43,190 nucleotides of DNA from an uncultured Chthonomonadaceae bacterium. GTDB taxonomy: Bacteria; Armatimonadota; Chthonomonadetes; Chthonomonadales; Chthonomonadaceae. A program made the position numbers and the translations under genes. The stretch covers positions 1-43,190 of the forward strand of contig CAWIEK010000032.1 in assembly GCA_963835065.1 (NCBI GenBank). Reading direction: 5' to 3'. The notes under the pieces were generated by a model. The model did not search any database, was not told where the DNA came from, and worked only from the letters and a program-made list of their open reading frames with translations. Positions 4,467 through 43,190 of this stretch are shown piece by piece (position 1 is the stretch's first letter; each line of letters begins with the position of its first letter).

Positions 4467-4647
4467 TTCGCGCCATCCTGCTACACACGATTCAAATAAC
4501 ACCCCGTCAGGTTGGGACTGCTTACGGGTTAGTATACAATCTTTCACGGCACAAGCGTAACAAAAGTTTCACGCCCGCTCTGGACTGAATAGTTACTCTA
4601 CGTGTATAATACCAGCAACATTCGATTGTTTATTCGAGGAATGGACA

Positions 4648-4865
4648 TGATTGATCCTGAAGAACCTGTCCAAATAGAACAAGCCGTAGTCCAGCAGTTT
4701 GCTTCATGCGTGGACGCTCAAAAACAAGCCGCTTTTCATCAGGCTCTGCTTGCTTCAGGATTAGTCAAAACAATCAAAACGCCACCTGCCGATATGCCTG
4801 AATGTGCGGCGGTTCCCATACTAGGCAAGCCGCTTTCAGAAACCATTATGGAGGAGCGACGCTGA
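4648..4865 (+). CDS. Putative type II antitoxin (VapB-like)
   Basis: C-terminus LLASGLV..VPILGKPLSETIMEERR resembles antitoxins that precede PIN/VapC genes; GAGGA RBS upstream; start codon uncertain (4641 region vs 4648). Confidence 0.55.
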
Positions 4866-4912
4866 GTGGCAGTATACAATGCGTGATGACATGGCTAAAG
4901 AAAGTAGGGGAA

Positions 4913-5178
4913 ATGGCAGCTACCCAACACACCGCAATCGTCAGAGAAAACGGTTTTCTGGAAATTGCACAAGGCATTCAAGAGCACTTGGCTTGCAGCC
5001 TGGCGATGAAGTCGAAATTGTACTTCTGAATGAACCGAAGGACGGCGGCAGTTCGCTATCCACTTCCTCTTCGACGGAGCAAGCGGAAGTCTCTATGACC
5101 TTCTCGAAGGCGTCATCGGTTCTGTGGAAGGCAACGGAGAAAAACTCCGAGCAGACGGGCGCAAAGTTCACAAAATAG
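4913..5178 (+). pseudogene. AbrB/MazE-like antitoxin, frameshifted
   Basis: Stitched MAATQHTAIVRENGFLEIAQGIQEHL-GLQPGDEVEIVL is the AbrB swapped-hairpin signature; C-terminal SLYDLLEGVIGSVEG..SEQTGAKFT in shifting frames; RBS AGGGG. Confidence 0.55.
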
Positions 5179-5199
5179 TTTTCAGAAGGTATAGAAGAT

Positions 5200-5658
5200 A
5201 TGAAATTAGCGGAAGCCCTGTTGTTGCGGGCGGATTGTCAGAAGAAGATGGAGCAATTGCGGCAGCGCATTGTCGGCAGCGCGAAAGTGCAGGAGGGCGA
5301 TGAGCCGCCCGAAAACCCGGCGCAATTGCTGGAAGAGATGGAGCGGGTTGCCGCGCAACTGCTGGCCCTGATTCAGAACATTAACACAACCAATTCCACG
5401 ACGGAATACGCGCCGGGTAAAAGCCTGTCGGACGCGCTGGCGGAACGCGATGTGCTGATGCTGCGCCGCAATGTTTATGCTGACCTTGCCCGCTCCGCGT
5501 CCGTCGTGCAGGCGCGCACCAGCCGTTCGGAAGTGAAGTTTGTCGGCACGGTGCGGGTTGCGGACATGCAGGAACAGGTGGATGCGCTGTCCAAAGCCTA
5601 CCGGGAAACCGACGCCCGCGTACAGGAATTGAACTGGCGGACGGAATTGAAGGAGTAG
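5200..5658 (+). CDS. DIP1984 family (septicolysin-annotated) helical protein
   Basis: MKLAEALLLRAD..SAKVQEGDEPPENP..INTTN..SLSDALAERD..SRSEVKF..VQELNWRTEL matches the family pattern end to end. Confidence 0.88.
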   Translation: MKLAEALLLRADCQKKMEQLRQRIVGSAKVQEGDEPPENPAQLLEEMERVAAQLLALIQNINTTNSTTEYAPGKSLSDALAERDVLMLRRNVYADLARSASVVQARTSRSEVKFVGTVRVADMQEQVDALSKAYRETDARVQELNWRTELKE

Positions 5659-5685
5659 GGGTGTTGGGTGTTGGGTATGCAGAGT

Positions 5686-5816
5686 CCGTGCAATAAATTG
5701 CGCGGCTGTGGTAACGAAGTCCGCCTTCGCGGACTCAATGCGGAAGAGATCATCTTTATACGGTGGAGTCCGCGAAGGCGGACTTCGTTACCACAGCCGC
5801 GAGTTTCAACTCACGG
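5686..5816. repeat. REPIN/MITE-like inverted-repeat doublet
   Basis: 36-bp perfect inverted repeat 5701-5736 / 5766-5801 (cgcggctgtggtaacgaagtccgccttcgcggactc), each arm with an internal hairpin agtccgccttcgcggact; imperfect extension outward to ~5686/5816. Confidence 0.85.
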
Positions 5817-5875
5817 CGCTTGTGTGAACGGTATTCAGGGGTTAGGACCCTCAACTCTCAACTCAAACACGCAGC

Positions 5876-6101
5876 CGGTAGCCGAATGTGGGGAAGCGAG
5901 CGCAGCCTGCCAACGGGGTACAGTTGGAAGATCGCCGTAATGGTGATACATGGTCGGCGTCGGAGCATCGTCGAGCGGGTTCGATCCCCGCACAGTACCG
6001 TCAGGCTCATCACGGTAACAAGGGTATCGGGCATTGTTACGCTGCACTACCATGCGCTGGTCGGCACATTCGGTGAGGGTGGGTACGGGGAAACTGCGCG
6101 T
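5876..6101 (+). ncRNA. Putative structured ncRNA with tRNA-like domain downstream of the DIP1984 gene
   Basis: Helix GCCGAATGTG 5881-5890 / CACATTCGGT 6065-6074; acceptor-like GGTACAGT 5917-5924 / ACAGTACC 5992-5999; T-arm GCGGG-TTCGATC-CCCGC 5975-5991; stem GTAACAA 6015-6021 / TTGTTAC 6034-6040; terminator immediately after; no credible ORF. Confidence 0.65.
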
Positions 6102-6116
6102 TTTGTGGGTTTGCAC

Positions 6117-6146
6117 AGCCTGCCGCAATTTGCGGCAGGCTTTTTT
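6117..6146 (+). terminator. Rho-independent terminator
   Basis: agcctgccgcaa-t-ttgcggcaggct followed by T-run. Confidence 0.85.
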
Positions 6147-6252
6147 CACGTCCGGCAGGGCTGCGGGCAGATCGGCTTTCAGGCTCTCACGAGAAGGGAA
6201 GACATATATTCTTCACGCTAAGGCTGAACCGGCGCGTGGAGCAGAAACGTTT

Positions 6253-9069
6253 TCAAACGGCTGCGGGCGCGGGTGCATCAAATTTTTGCAGCGCATACGC
6301 AATGGCTTCTTCCAGCGTGAGGCAGCGTCCCGCCGCCCATTCCGCCGCGAAAGCCGCTTCCCCCAGGTGGGAGCGCGCAATGGCAAGCTGTGCCTCCGTT
6401 TCCTGCGCGTCCTCCGGCGGCAGGGGAACATGAATGATTTCCCGCTGCGCTTCGACAACGCTCATCAAGCGGGCCATCTGCGCCCACTGATTTAACGCCG
6501 CATGGAGATAGGCAAGACTTTCCAAAATATAAGGGATATACTGACGCCCGCCCAATTGCTGAAACAGCCGCAAACTCTCCGCATACATCCGGCGATGCGT
6601 CGGCGTAATCGCCCATGCGAAAAGCGGCTTCCGCGATATTGTTCAACTCCACAGCCATGCGAAACTTGTCCCCAAGCTGACGATATATCGCCAGGCACTG
6701 CGCCCCTAATACGCGCGCATTCTCATCATGGCCTTGCCTGGAAGCGATCAAAGACAGGTTGCTCAGGGTCATGGCCGCGTACCGTTTATCGCCGCACTTG
6801 TTTAACAGGCGCAGGCTGTCTTCAAAATAATGACGCGCGTTTTCATAATCCTGCCGCAGATGGGAAGCGATGTTGCCCAAGCGAGTTCAGCGTAATCCCC
6901 ATGCCATGCTCGTCGCCGATTTCCTGCTGAATTTCCAGGCAGCGCAGGTGCAGGGCGCGCGCGGCTTCTGCGTCTTGCTCGGCATACGCGATGTCGCCCA
7001 ATCCGCTCAAGGCAAGAGCAACGCCTGCCCGGTAATCCAATTTTTCGGAGAGTTCCAGGCTTTGCTGAAAGTTGTCCTGCGCATGGCGGTAATCGCCCTG
7101 CGCCCACGCCAGCGTGCCCACGCCCCGCAGCGCGTCGGCCCAATCGGTTGTCGCCTGTTCGCAGCCCGGCTGCGCCATCAGGCGCGTCAAGCTGTTCGCG
7201 TCCCTCGCTGAAGTAGCCGCGTATCTCCCAGAAGCGCCACAAGGAGGAGGCCAGGCATAAACTTGTGTCATTGGCCTGCCGGTTCAGGGCGGCGCGCAGA
7301 TTGTCGTGTTCCTTTTCCAGTTGATCCAGCCACGTGGCCTGCTGCGGTCCCGTCAATTGGGCGTCGGCCTCCTTCGCCAGCGTGAGGTAATAATCCTGAT
7401 GCTTTTGCTGCGCTGCCTCCTTTTCGGCATGGGATTGCAGCTTTTCGGCGGCATACTGGCGCACCGTTTCCAGCAGGCGATAGCGCGTATGCCCCTCCTG
7501 CTCCTCATGCGCGACCAGGCTTTTATCCACCAGGCCGGCAAGGAGGTCCAAAACCTCCCAATCCTCAATTTCCTCACCGGCGCACACCTGCTCCGCCGCA
7601 TCCGGCGTCCATCCGCCCGCGAATACCGACAGGCAGGCAAGCAGCGTCTTTTCCTGATCGTTAAGCAGATCATACGACCAGTCAATAAGGGCGCGTAATG
7701 TTTGCTGGCGCGGCAGGGCAGCGCGGCTTCCGCCTGTGAGCAGGCGGAACCGGTTGTCCAGCTTGCTGTCAATCTCCTCAACCGACAGCGAGCGCGTTCT
7801 TGCCGCCGCCAGTTCAATGGCAAGCGGGATGCCGTCCAACTGCCGGCACAAATGCGCAATGGCGGCCACGTTGCCGGAATACAGCGTAAAATCCTGACGC
7901 TGCTGCCGGGCGCGCTCCACAAACAGCCGGGGCGCGTCGTACTCCATCAGCCGCAGGATCGGGTCGGCGGCTTCTTGGCCGATGATTTCTTGATCCACGA
8001 GCGTCGTGTCTTCAGGAGCCGGGGCGAGGAGGGACGGGATGCGCCACGCATGTTCGCCCGAAATGCCCAACCGCTCCCGACTTGTCGCCAGAATCGTCAG
8101 ATGCGGACAGCTTTTGAGCAGGGTGTCGGCGACGCGGGCGCAGGCGTTTATCAGATGCTCGCAGTTGTCCAGCAGCAAAAGTATCTGCTTATCGCGCAGG
8201 CTGTCAGTGAGGGTTTGCAGCAGGGAACGGTTCGCTTCCTCGCGCACACTCAGCGCGGAAGCAATCGCCTGCGGAACCAGGTCGGGTTCCGTCAGCGCGG
8301 CCAGTTCCACCAGCCACACGCCGTCCTTGTACTGGTCCAGCAGGTCGGCTCCCACCTGCACGGAAAGGCGGGTTTTGCCCACGCCGCCGATGCCTAAGAG
8401 CGTCAGCAGGGGCGTGGTGGTGAGAAGCCGCTTGATTTCCGCCATTTCGCGCTGCCTGCCGATAAAGGAGGACATTTGCCGGGGGAGGTTCGTGGGCAGG
8501 TAGTCCAGCGATTTGAGGGGCGGAAATTCTGTCGGCAGGGCCGGATGGAAAAGCTGCCAGACATGTTCGGGAGCCTGCAGGTCTTTGAGGCGGTGCATCC
8601 CCATGTCCTGAAGCGTGACATCGGGGGGCAGGCTGTCGCAAACAAGCCGGTAGGTTGCCTCAGAAATCAGCGTCTGCTGCCCGTGTCCGACGCCCTGCAA
8701 GCGGGCGACCCGGTTGAGCGTTTGCCCGAAGTAGTCGTTGTCGCGCTCTTCCGCCTGCCCGGTATGCAGTCCCATACGCACCCGAATGGAGCCAACCTCG
8801 CCCCAATCCGGCTTTTGCAGGGCTAAATGGGCGTCCAGGGCGGCGGCGAGCGCATCGGGGGCTGTGGGAAACGCCGCGCAGAACGCATCGCCAACGGTCT
8901 TGAAGACATGCCCGTGATGCTGTTCAATCGCGTAGCGCAGCAGTTCGTCATGGCAGGCCAGCGCCCTGCGCATTCCTTCAGGATACTTTTCCCATAGCTT
9001 GGTGCTGCCTTCAATATCCGTGAAAAGGAAGGTAATGTTCCCGGTTGGCATAGATGGCCTAGATGACAT
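6253..9069 (-). CDS. Class III adenylate/guanylate cyclase + NB-ARC/STAND ATPase + TPR protein; frameshifts near 7185, 6880, 6590
   Basis: FLFTDIEGST, KTVGDAFC, VRMGLHTG, LNRVARL cyclase motifs; Walker A GIGGVGKT, LLLDNCEH, LDGIPLAIELAA; TPR segments in ORFs 6843..7271, 6278..6880, 6253..6588 ending AWAAGR..LEEAIAYAL-type tail. Confidence 0.88.
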
Positions 9070-11516: not shown

Positions 11517-11781
11517 ACCACCCGCTGCGCTAGAGACACAGAGACACAGAGAAAGAGCCGATGCGAGAAGAACAGAAGGGGAAAAGAGAGGGAACCGCAA
11601 AGAGGCAAAGAGAGCAAAGGAATTGCTAACAAGAGGAGAATCTATTCTCTTGTTGTTTGCCTTCGTTGTTTTCTTTGCGTCCTTTGCTCCTTTACGGTTC
11701 GTCCTTCTCTCCTCTTCTCTCCTATATTTTCTCGTATTGCTTTTCCTCTGTGTCTCTGTGTCTCTAGCGCAGCGGGTGGTT
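11516..11781. mobile_element. Nested MITE-like inverted-repeat element
   Basis: Outer 36-bp perfect IR 11516-11551 / 11746-11781 with CACAGAGA units; inner imperfect IR 11592-11619 / 11673-11700 with GCAAAG units; purine-rich left half, pyrimidine-rich right half. Confidence 0.75.
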
Positions 11782-11783
11782 AG

Positions 11784-14700
11784 TTATTTGTCTTTGTCGT
11801 TGATGCCCATGCCGCTTTTGTTCGGGATACGGCGGGCGCTTGGGCGCGACGTAGGGGGCGCGTTTCAGTTCGTCGAGCATCTGCTTGATGCCCGCGTCGA
11901 GTTGGGGGTCGCCGCCGTTGGTCATTAAGGCGGGGTCGTCCATCACTTCGATGTCGGGGTCTACGCCGTGCCCTTCGATGCCCCATGTGCTGTTGAGCTT
12001 GTAGAAGGCGAAGGTGGGCGCGGTGACAGCGCCGCCGTCAATGAGGCCGGGGTTGCCGGAAATGCCGACAAGCCCGCCCCACGTGCGCGTCCCGATGAGT
12101 TTGCCCAGTTTGGCCTGCCGGAACATCCAGGGGAACGCATCGCCGCCCGAACCCGCCAGCCCGTTGATTAACATGCACTTGGGGCCGGGATTGGAAACCG
12201 GAGGCCACTGCCAGTCCAGGCCGTCGCGCTTGGCCCAGTAGTTGGTGATGGGACGGTTGAGCAGTTCGATGAAGCGGTCGGGAATCTGCCCGCCGCCGTT
12301 CCAGCGCTCATCAATAATCAGCGCGTCCTTGTCGAACTGCCCCATGAACTGCCGGAACAGATCGTTTTGCCCGTTGACGCCCGTATCCGGCACGTAGATA
12401 TAGCCCACGCGCCCGCCCGTCTTTTGCTCCACGTACTTGCGGTTCTGCTCAATCCAGTCGCGGTAGCGCAATGTACCTTCGCTTCCCGTCAGGCGAACCG
12501 TCACGTCGCGGGCCGCGCTGTCCATTGTCGGCTTGTCGCTGACCGTGATGGTAACGACTCTGTCCGCAAGATTTTGGAACGCCGCCCAGGGATCCTGCTT
12601 CGTGTCGAGGGGCGTGCCATTGACGGCGAGAAGGTAATCCCCCGCCTTAACGTTGACGCCCGGTTGTGCCAGTGGCCCCCGCGTTTCCACGTCCCATGGG
12701 GCGCCGGACACGATTTTCTTGATGCGGTACGCGCCGTTTTCCAGCGCATAGTCCGCGCCCAACATGCCGACAGATACGCTCGGCTCCGCCGCCACATCCC
12801 CGCCCGAATAGTAGGCGTGTCCCACGTTGAGTTCCGAGATCATTTCGCTGATAACGTAGCTCACATCGTCGCGGGTCGCGCAGCTTTCCAGCATTTTGGC
12901 GTACTGGTCATGCACGTTTTTCCAGTTCAGGCCGTGCATATTAGGGTCGTAGAAGAAGTCGCGTTCGATCCGCCACGCATCGTCAAACAACTGCTTCCAT
13001 TCCGTGCGGGGGTCAATGGTCGTGGTCATGGCGGCAGGTGTTACCGTATCGCCTGTCGCGCCTGCGGAAGCGTCCTGCACGGTTGCGCTTGGGCCGCGCA
13101 CGATCAGGATTTTCTTGCCGTCCGGCGTGATGTCCATGCCGACGGCTCCGGCGGCAACGGTCTGCTCCTGCCGCTTTTCATCGGTGATGTCGAACAGCTT
13201 GATGCCCGCGCCCTCCTGCGAACCGGGCGTACCGAAGCGGGCAAACAGCAGTTGGTTGCGGTCATTGACGGCCAATCCGCCGAACCGCCCGCTGCGCAGG
13301 GGCAGCAGAATGGCGCGGCTTTCCAGTCCGTCCATGTCAATTGTGACGTGGAGGGGAGCGGCGGCGGGAGGCGTACCGGGTTTAGCTCCGGGCGTTCCGG
13401 GGTTGGCGGGAGCGCCGGGTTTGGGCGGGGGCGCATTGCCGACGCGCTCCGCCGACATTGCCATGATCTGCCCCATGATGGTGATGCTGCCGGAGATGCG
13501 ATTGCCGGAGATTTTGGCCGTCATTGTGCCGACAACGCCGCCGGGCAGGGCCAGACTCAACGTGAGTTCTTTTGTGGCCGGGTTGTACGTGCCCGTAATG
13601 TCGGCGTTGCCCTGGTCGGACTGCGCCTGCCCCGTCACCACGTTATTCGCGCCCAGCGTCAGATGCAGCGTGAAGCTGACGGCTCCCGCCATGCCCTTCC
13701 AATCGCCGGATACCTCGTCGGTTTGGGCTTGCCGGACAACGGGTTCGTCCAAACCCAATTGGGCGAACACGCTTACGCTTGCTTTGGGACTATCGGCAAA
13801 CGGTTCCGCTTCGGATTTGGGCAGGTAGGGCGAACGAACGTCTTTGCGCAGGGGCATGGCGACCAGAATCTGCGTTCCGCTGTAAATCCAGGTGCTGCCC
13901 TCATCGCCGTACTGCGGGTTGAAGCTGCGCGCGCTGGCGAAATACAGGTAATCGCCCTTGCGGTCAAACACGGGGTCGGAATCGCTGAACAGGCCGCTCG
14001 TCACCGAGTGTGGCCTTGCCGGAGTCGAGGCTGTACAGATAAATGGAGGACGTTCGGCGGCGTCCGCTGCCCCGCGCATAGGTGAGCCATTTGCTGTCTG
14101 GCGACCATGTGGGCGTGATTGTGTTGGCGGCGGGATCGGTGTCTACCAGTTTGGTTTGCCCGCTTGCGATGGTATACAGGTACAACGCGCCGGTTTTGTC
14201 GGCGAACGTGATGTATTTGGTGTCGGGCGACCATTGCACACCGGTACGGAACGCGCTGCCGTTTTTGGTTAGCTGCTTGGCTTCGCCCTTGCCGTCCGAG
14301 GGCATCATGTAGAGTTCGTACTCGCCCGTCGCGTCCGACAGATAGGCGATCCAGCGTCCGTCGGGACTCCAGGCCGGGTCGCGTTCGGCAATGCCGTTGG
14401 TGTGCGTCAGGTTGCGGGCGACGCCTTCTTTCACGGGCGCGATCCAGATGTCGCCCCGCGCTTCCATGACGACGTGCTTGCCGCTCGGCGAAACGCCCCA
14501 ACCGGTCAGAAAACGAGTGACATCCACGCTGCGCGGGCGCAGTTCGCCCTGATCGCCGGGGATGCGAACGTCCACGACATGCGTTTTATTGGTCGCCAGG
14601 TCAAGCAGTTCCAGGTTCGCGCCGTGCTGAAACACGATCTCGCCCTTGCCGTTCGCGCCGGGTCCGATGGACGGCCATTTGAGGTCATAATCAGTTACAT

Positions 14701-15482
14701 GCGTGACTTGCTGGCGCTGCGCGTTTTTGGTATCGTAGCGCCAGATGTTAAGCCGGTGTTCCGGGCCGCCGTCCGACAAATAATAGATGGTCGTGCCCTG
14801 CCACATCGGGAGGGTGTCCGTGCCTTCCCAATCCGTGATTTTTTTGGCGGTCTTGGTTTGCAGGTCGAACAGCCAGATGTCCTGCGCCCACCCGCCCCGG
14901 TAGCGTTTCCAGGTGCGGTTGTTGGTGGACGAGGGGGTATACGCGAGATAGCGTCCGTCGGGGCTGATGGCCGCGTCATCGCCATACGGAACGGGCAGTT
15001 TCTCCGGCAGGCCGCCGGTTGGAGGCACAACAAAAAGCTGATCCTGCCGCGCCTGCCCGACAAGCCCGTTGGACGCGAACAGCAGCTTGCCGTCCGGCGT
15101 CCAGTTGCACAGGCGCTCGGCAGACGGATGGTGCGTCACGCGGGTCGGCAATCCACCCTCGGCGGGAATGGTGTACAAATCGTAATTGCCGTCGTAATTG
15201 CCCGTAAACGCGACGGTTGTGCCGTCCTTATTAAAGTGGGGCAGAATGGCGCGTCCTGACGGCGATGCGAGGGGAATGGCCTGTCCGCCCTCGCGCCCGA
15301 CAATCCAGAGCTTGTTGGCGTAGGTAAACACGATTTGCTTCGCGCTCACGGACGGGTAGCGCAGCATCCCGGCATGAATTTTCACGGTTTGCGGAGCCTG
15401 CCGCGCCCACAGGGTCAGGGGGCAAAGCAGCAAACTCGCGCTGATAAGCCACTTTTTCTGAGCGGCTTCGTAGCTTCGACAT
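11784..15482 (-). CDS. Tricorn protease homolog (peptidase S41, beta-propellers + PDZ); frameshifts near 15455, 14005, 11825
   Basis: MLRYPSVS, WKRYRGG, PD40 repeats (WSPDG), WRIERDFFYDPNMHG, ELNVGHAY, GYIYVPDT, DERWNGGG, GSGGDAFP catalytic Ser motif, GTRTWGG, EGHGVDPDIEV, DPQL. Confidence 0.93.

Positions 15483-43119: not shown

Positions 43120-43190
<71 letters not shown>

Follow-up and report, generated by a model that had tools for sequence, protein, structure and literature searches.

A structured RNA family associated with DIP1984/DUF6847 genes in several bacterial phyla

The DIP1984 gene and its surroundings

The window analyzed here, a stretch of 43,190 nucleotides from an uncultured Chthonomonadaceae bacterium of the phylum Armatimonadota (assembly GCA_963835065.1, contig CAWIEK010000032.1), carries on its forward strand a DIP1984/DUF6847 gene for a 152-residue protein (5200..5658). 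Its assignment to the DIP1984 family in a preliminary description of this DNA is borne out by profile searches, in which NF038048 (E 4e-55, 186 bits, cut-off 70) and PF20935 (181 bits, cut-off 27) both score above their curated cut-offs. We know of no established function for DIP1984 proteins, for which a crystal structure dates from 2009. The sole solved relative, DIP1984 itself (PDB 3KDQ, an entry with four chains), belongs to the same protein family, shares 44% identity with the window's protein at a TM of 0.95, and is described without an RNA partner in the papers found. An alignment-based model of the window's protein (pLDDT 94) is elongated and all-helical, with two halves that look alike by eye, and in a fold search with this model 3KDQ alone stands out (Z 17.5, rmsd 1.8, 151 aligned residues; next match Z 8.0), no known enzyme fold having been found in the fold searches. 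A structure search with a single-sequence model returned generic helical bundles only, and from the ESM Atlas came DUF6847 clusters and, beyond these, a single viral cluster at 0.91. The protein alignment reveals a set of near-invariant arginines (R10, R23, R83, R106 and R135) together with the invariant residues Q142, N145 and W146.

The family comprises 3,175 clusters at 50% identity and is patchily distributed, with a full-length gene in 27 of 301 genomes; it also occurs on plasmids (370 records) and on phage contigs. Deinococcus radiodurans is among the organisms with a family match. Some records label plasmid copies, for example those of Acinetobacter, as 'septicolysin', and nothing here supports a cytolysin role.

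Downstream of the gene lies a REP-like palindromic insertion (5660..5829, no strand assigned), already recognized as such in the preliminary description: the palindrome is found at about 25 places in the window's genome, and in a related contig 5659 and 5830 are linked by 43 other letters, without the insertion, which we place outside the system discussed below. It is followed on the forward strand by a structured non-coding RNA of ~240 nt (5865..6103) and by an intrinsic terminator (6117..6146) identified in a terminator scan. The strong terminator earlier proposed to be shared by gene and RNA is indeed the sole terminator-like site between 4500 and 7000 (6117–6141 plus a U-tract), none having been found in 4500–5200, but it is local to this genome rather than family-wide, as a strict scan places a terminator within 110 nt in 16 of 182 loci.

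Elsewhere in the window are a NOV_C nuclease-like fragment (PF13020; 3706–3975, reverse strand) and two small forward-strand ORFs (4602–4865 and 4879–5178) that are antitoxin-like by eye and have no profile match. Genes apparently split across overlapping frames occupy 36–2562, 6253–9069 and 11764–15433 (by eye, a VIT/vWA protein, a cyclase-NTPase-TPR protein and a tricorn-like protease), which suggests frameshift errors in the assembly. An Rfam search of the window returned one tRNA and no other match.

Fold of the RNA and its support by comparison

A covariance model scores the element at 150.6 bits, the window's copy being part of the training set. The non-coding stretch previously delimited at 5876–6101 was rightly taken for structured RNA, but the element is slightly wider and extends over 5865–6103. 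Covariation was assessed on an alignment of 100 distinct elements with a mean identity of 56%; it had been fitted to the nested helices alone, leaving out the crossing ones, and its related sequences are not independent. The test that the preliminary description had put forward, a search for structure downstream of DIP1984 homologues across phyla, yields a covarying fold: the 52 proposed pairs are realized in 89.6% of the alignment cells and 47 of them show compensatory change, a real pairing value that none of 500 shuffles reaches and that compares with 33–40% in slid controls. The main nested helices also emerge from structure-free mutual information computed on plain MAFFT alignments. The folding energy of the single sequence is at chance level (z 0.78), and the case is therefore made by comparison. 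A short ORF inside the element was considered and ruled out: in 84 of 101 elements none of the three sense frames is open throughout, and element lengths are uniform modulo 3.

The predicted fold is closed by an outer stem, P0, whose 5' strand (5865..5874) pairs with 6094–6103 in a variable register (64% paired, with compensatory change). Within it, a GGU at 5877..5879 could pair with the ACC at 6049–6051 to form a pseudoknot, C; 92–98 of 100 sequences are able to do so, and covariation support is absent because the pairs are invariant. The 5' strand of the main stem, P1/P2 (5881..5903), has its partner at 6054–6074 (89–99% paired, mutual information z 7–22), and the conserved internal loop between its two parts contains a purine-purine pair, 5895/6060, that itself covaries. 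It is followed by an H-type pseudoknot, A (5906..5927), formed by 5906–5908/5916–5918 and 5910–5914/5923–5927, which is 85–90% paired with compensatory change in all eight pairs, and by an optional hairpin (5930..5949) that varies by lineage, as judged from the alignment and a single-sequence fold. The loop of the next hairpin, P5 (5954..5974, 92% paired), engages through 5963–5966 with 6005–6008 in pseudoknot B (97% paired), where the pair 5964/6007 swaps between GC and AU in 11 sequences. Directly downstream, a hairpin resembling the T-arm of tRNA (5975..5991) is 96.6% paired and optional: it has 26–30 gaps per 100 sequences and is missing from about a quarter of the homologues, and a T-loop motif is present in 61 of 101 RNAs.

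The six helices listed in the preliminary description can all form in the window's sequence, one of them with a mismatch, and across the 100 homologues they fall into two groups. Helices 5881–5890/6065–6074, 5954–5959/5969–5974 and 5975–5979/5987–5991 are conserved and covary. Helices 5917–5924/5992–5999 and 6015–6021/6034–6040, together with a proposed pseudoknot between 5900–5905 and 6094–6099, jointly reach 45% paired cells, a value equalled or exceeded in 448 of 500 shuffles; in the family, the two strands of that pseudoknot instead take part in nested pairings, 5899–5903 with 6054–6058 and 6094–6103 with 5865–5874. Comparison of the sequences thus indicates an RNA fold whose closing stem is long and which has two covarying pseudoknots and a possible, invariant third.

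Linkage of gene and RNA

Homologous loci were drawn from Armatimonadota, other genomes, metagenomes, viral contigs and plasmids. Among the 205 that retain the complete gene and 330 nt or more of downstream DNA, the tract GAGGGYGGG-N2-6-GGG lies behind 174 genes, compared with 0 of 197 upstream controls, and the GGTAG...GAGGGYGGG flanks that the preliminary description had mentioned for other phyla prove to be real. A covariance model trained on 50 elements and applied at E < 1e-4 finds a match downstream of 80 of 85 intact genes in one set and of 96 of 97 in another, 176 of 182 in all, in seven phyla (Armatimonadota, Acidobacteriota, Chloroflexota, Cyanobacteriota, Bacillota, Pseudomonadota and Planctomycetota) and in phage contigs; this count includes the 50 training rows, partly redundant loci and a partial scan of L186–L206, and excludes weak false protein matches, partial genes, short downstream DNA and the remote phage gene of L124/L125. 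Matches are weak or absent at L116, L180, L223, L224 and the Acinetobacter copies L034 and L122; with filters off L034 reaches E 4e-5, and the model finds no match behind L116, L180 and the remote phage gene L124.

The linkage is equally strict in whole genomes. In the window's own phylum (151 genomes), a strong match is present in 17 of 17 genomes with a full-length gene and in 0 of 134 without it (E < 1e-7, 15 candidates scored per genome, related genomes not being independent), and all 17 matches adjoin the DIP1984 gene. In 151 whole genomes of Bacillota, the corresponding figures are 8 of 8 and 0 of 143. Both counts rest on strong matches, weak ones (L252, L254, L256 and some in Bacillota) having also occurred. 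No Rfam family matches the element in the window at gathering score, and none lies over it in 20 homologous bacterial and viral loci at E ≤ 1; an exact pattern search for the RNA in viral contigs gave no match. Conservation, covariation and one-to-one occurrence thus sustain the central proposal of the preliminary description, that the DIP1984 gene comes with a structured RNA of its own, and comparative sequence analysis strongly supports 5865–6103 as a non-coding RNA, conserved and covarying, found behind this gene in nearly every genome examined.

Two Bacillota genomes harbor two DIP1984 paralogues ~2 kb apart (L210/L224 and L211/L223), one with an RNA that has the G-tract and the other with one that lacks it.

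The arrangement of the loci bears on whether the RNA is a molecule of its own. It lies on the same strand as the gene, and 133 of 169 loci have its start no more than 30 nt beyond the stop codon, with a family median of 11 nt from stop to GGTA; this proximity, like the strict one-to-one linkage, would suit a cis-acting 3' UTR element that stabilizes or autoregulates the DIP1984 mRNA, possibly through protein binding, with no separate RNA. The spacing nevertheless extends to 509 nt, and insertions, intervening ORFs and tandem copies are tolerated: in phage contig L117 two small ORFs separate gene and RNA, the RNA copies (4988–5192 and 5787–5997) flank a 182-residue ORF that is homing endonuclease-like by eye, and L027, L071 and L119 have two RNA copies per gene. 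These features argue for a separate RNA rather than a signal tied to the stop codon. In addition, biocrust metatranscriptome contigs with up to 95–99% identity to the window cover only 5881–6069 of the interval 5000–6400; they come from three runs of one study, were available as contigs only, and may include DNA carry-over. Such coverage of the element but not of the ORF fits a stable RNA that exceeds its mRNA, and we consider a purely cis-acting role unlikely. A discrete RNA, likely cut from a shared gene-RNA transcript, is the reading we carry forward.

A proposed protein-RNA particle and its possible relatives

Between pseudoknot B and the ACC of the possible pseudoknot C extends a linker (5994..6048) of 6–8-nt repeats, largely without covarying pairs, whose units end in a near-invariant A (6012, 6018, 6026, 6033, 6039 and 6046). 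Its autocorrelation peaks at lag 7 (z 6.8) and lag 14 (z 5.9), and the distance from pseudoknot B to the ACC is 45–47 nt in 88 of 101 RNAs. Because the adenines are periodic and the length is fixed, we predict that the linker is a protein-binding tract. Farther downstream, the alignment reveals a near-invariant G-tract, GAGGGYGGGnnnGGGG (6075..6090), that could form a G-quadruplex-like cap. Eight short forms match the covariance model yet lack both the 5' GGUA and the G-tract, which therefore behave as one detachable module. Shortened RNAs are also seen behind DIP1984 genes on an Acinetobacter plasmid (L034:2986–3179) and an Enterococcus plasmid (L035:2949–3125), and an apparent orphan 3' half of the RNA (L250:1501–1643) follows a secretin-like gene in a genome that has 9% contamination and no DIP1984 match. 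The notion of a G-tract module standing free in gene-less genomes was discarded, as the matches at L251, L253 and L255 are chance occurrences inside ORFs (three of the four with ORFs listed).

We propose as probable that a DIP1984 oligomer and the RNA make up one particle, the repeats being the predicted binding site of the oligomer. The RNA, likely cut from the shared transcript, would persist as a stable species whose stems and pseudoknots fold into a compact body presenting a fixed-length tract of ~7-nt repeats; an elongated helical oligomer would read these repeats in series through the conserved Arg, Asn, Gln and Trp residues, and the G-tract would cap the RNA ends. The optional T-arm could act as a mimic of the tRNA elbow that tethers or decoys RNA-processing enzymes, much as Y RNAs do for Ro60. 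We tentatively suggest that the particle acts through this tRNA-like arm under RNA-damage or translation stress, a role for which the RNA-repair and Ro60-like neighbors described below would speak.

The roles could also be reversed, with the RNA as the active part, a ribozyme or a ligand-binding RNA built for example around the G-tract junction, and the protein only as its chaperone or stabilizer. The 27 columns conserved at 95% or more, mostly unpaired G and A, would suit this assignment, as would the multiple pseudoknots and a protein without a known enzyme fold; on the other hand, about 10 loci do without the G-tract module and the phage versions described below have repeats and a pseudoknot without it, and we regard an RNA-centered function as rather improbable.

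A particle of protein and RNA invites comparison with Ro60/Rsr and its Y RNAs (PMC4201824), with which there are several likenesses: an RNA beside the gene of its protein, a long closing stem, a T-arm mimic, and a frequent context of tRNA arrays and RtcB. In the present family, RtcB, Ro60, RtcA, RtcR or an RNA ligase lies near 21 of 32 Acidobacteriota loci, at least three tRNAs lie near 21 of the 32, Ro60 is in the flank of 9 of the 32, and a divergent Ro60-like gene is found near 10 of 17 cyanobacterial loci. No RNA-repair or Ro60 neighbor was found in 15 loci of the window's own phylum (16 kb), 16 of Chloroflexota, 6 of Bacillota and 10 of Pseudomonadota, the search being by tblastn with one representative each in the fetched flanks of these 47 loci; Ro60 within 4 kb is confined to some Acidobacteriota and cyanobacterial loci. 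The RNA-repair link is thus recurrent yet lineage-limited.

From these neighbors and the T-arm one could also read a Y RNA of a new kind, to which Ro60 or a Ro60-like protein binds while DIP1984 is the tethered effector, and one phage RNA gives a partial, sub-threshold score with the Rfam YrlA model (44.5 versus 69 bits). The Ro-binding motif of YrlA, given as GNCGAAN0-1G in PMC4201824, is however not conserved: of 101 RNAs only 7, the window's copy included, have it within 45 nt of the 5' end. The Rfam YrlA model gives no match in the 20 bacterial and viral loci. Of a tRNA-like domain, the T-arm is present in about three quarters of the sequences, and no covarying D-arm or acceptor stem emerged from the alignment. 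Canonical Ro60 shows no enrichment in the carrier genomes of the window's phylum (5 of 17 versus 29 of 134), as counted with a Pfam model that misses the divergent Ro60-like protein present in the window's genome. The partner here is moreover a 152-residue helical protein, not a TROVE ring, and the DIP1984 RNA has the pseudoknots, the repeat linker and the G-tract in addition. We hold a Ro60-bound Y RNA to be highly improbable and retain a DIP1984-bound particle as the favored model.

The divergent Ro60-like proteins form a family of ~480 residues (L186:513–2357, L067, L079, L084, L091, L096, L103, L106, L110, L111, L113 and L176) without a Pfam or NCBIfam match that aligns to Ro60/TROVE (hhalign 93.9%, 353 columns) and is often encoded directly upstream of DIP1984 in cyanobacteria, with a copy in the window's own genome (C45:50582–51946). 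Two further families of small proteins without a Pfam or NCBIfam match recur beside the gene-RNA pair, one in 24 loci (L064:3324–3980) and one in 14 loci of Acidobacteriota and cyanobacteria (L040:3703–4260).

The preliminary description had named as a possibility a defense or type III toxin-antitoxin-like pair, in which the RNA would neutralize a toxic DIP1984 protein. In ToxIN, CptIN and TenpIN, an RNA encoded upstream as a tandem array is cut by a nuclease of Kid/MazF fold. These systems share with the present one a small protein gene adjoining a pseudoknotted RNA on plasmids and phages, and the patchy distribution of DIP1984, its presence on plasmids and phage contigs and the occasional tandem RNA copies would be in line with such a function. 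Here, by contrast, a single 220-nt fold lies downstream of the gene and there is no upstream repeat array (the G-tract being found in none of the 197 upstream controls). Fold searches matched only 3KDQ clearly, the all-helical model being unlike the ToxN endoribonuclease fold, and PADLOC profiles gave no match at E ≤ 0.01. The nuclease-like and antitoxin-like neighbors of the window do not recur among the gene clusters of 206 loci, and lytic phages carry a related-looking pair. A toxin-antitoxin or anti-phage function in this sense is very unlikely.

OLE RNA with its protein OapA, raiA, GOLLD and ROOL are large structured bacterial non-coding RNAs, some with cognate proteins, and TRAP, Hfq and Rho are oligomers that read periodic RNA repeats. 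With the former the DIP1984 RNA shares pseudoknots, gene linkage and the status of a structured RNA of unknown function, some of them lying in phage tRNA clusters; it differs in being smaller, without an Rfam match, one-to-one with DUF6847 and endowed with a periodic single-stranded tract. With the latter it shares short, evenly spaced repeats, suggesting one per binding site, although the protein fold differs and the repeats lie in a dedicated RNA, not in target mRNAs. Literature searches returned no description of the RNA, which survey supplements or subscription papers may list under another motif name. The pair is apparently undescribed, and no system known to us matches its layout, the comparison covering OLE, raiA, GOLLD, ROOL, ToxIN, TRAP and Hfq. 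It would give a protein family that has had a crystal structure since 2009 and lacks a function, and that includes the 'septicolysin' gene of Acinetobacter plasmids, a partner open to testing, and would constitute a multi-phylum RNA family beyond Rfam.

A possible parallel is found in phages. Foldseek returned weak matches to phage proteins of ~200 residues (E 0.01–0.6; E 0.04 and TMq 0.56 for the comparison with phrog_1491), among which we count, by its length, the 209-residue ORF52 of Cronobacter phage vB_CsaP_009, a member of phrog_1491, relatives of which occur in 724 phage records. The protein of phage contig L117 matches phrog_1491 at E 0.0067 over residues 2–145, and hhalign of DIP1984 against phrog_1491 gives a probability of 20.8% (0.4% against one sequence), so that homology of the two proteins is suggestive only. 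In all seven phages fetched, the phrog_1491 gene is followed by a 364–502-nt gap, one of which contains two short annotated ORFs, and in three of the seven the gene lies in a tRNA cluster. An H-type pseudoknot exceeds all 12 shuffles in five of the seven gaps, long closing stems are predicted in most, and a 7–8-nt periodicity is present in all seven (z 2.7–6.0, values inflated by the choice of the best window, which for L289 fell outside the repeat tract). The gaps keep repeats and a pseudoknot, without an obvious G-tract, and Rfam gives nothing for these phage RNAs beyond the sub-threshold YrlA score mentioned above. Compared with DIP1984, the phage proteins are longer and the repeat tracts are longer, and the period is similar; a longer repeat period in phages was entertained and dismissed, as phage and bacterial tracts both peak near 7–8 nt.

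The T5 member is T5.085 (98% to the fetched copy), and the gap behind it, conserved in 444 records, has no RNA annotation, though the other stable RNAs of T5 are annotated. The unannotated RNA-like element of ~350 nt, recognized by closing stem, pseudoknot and repeats, lies at 43142–43504 of T5 (AY543070) and at L289:2131–2500 in the T5-like phage HdH2, with counterparts in L288 and L290–L294. Common phages of the T5 kind carry what is likely a distant version of the DIP1984 gene-RNA pair. With somewhat less than even confidence, we suggest that DIP1984 and phrog_1491 represent one ancient class of ribonucleoprotein, in which a helical oligomer would assemble on ~7-nt repeats of its own pseudoknotted RNA, protein length scaling with repeat number, to serve in tRNA or translation conflicts in bacteria and large lytic phages. 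If the phage link is true, T5 and about 700 sequenced phage records carry an overlooked gene, and likely then such an RNA, and the pair becomes open to standard genetics in E. coli and T5. The tail fiber label of phrog_1491 is doubtful.
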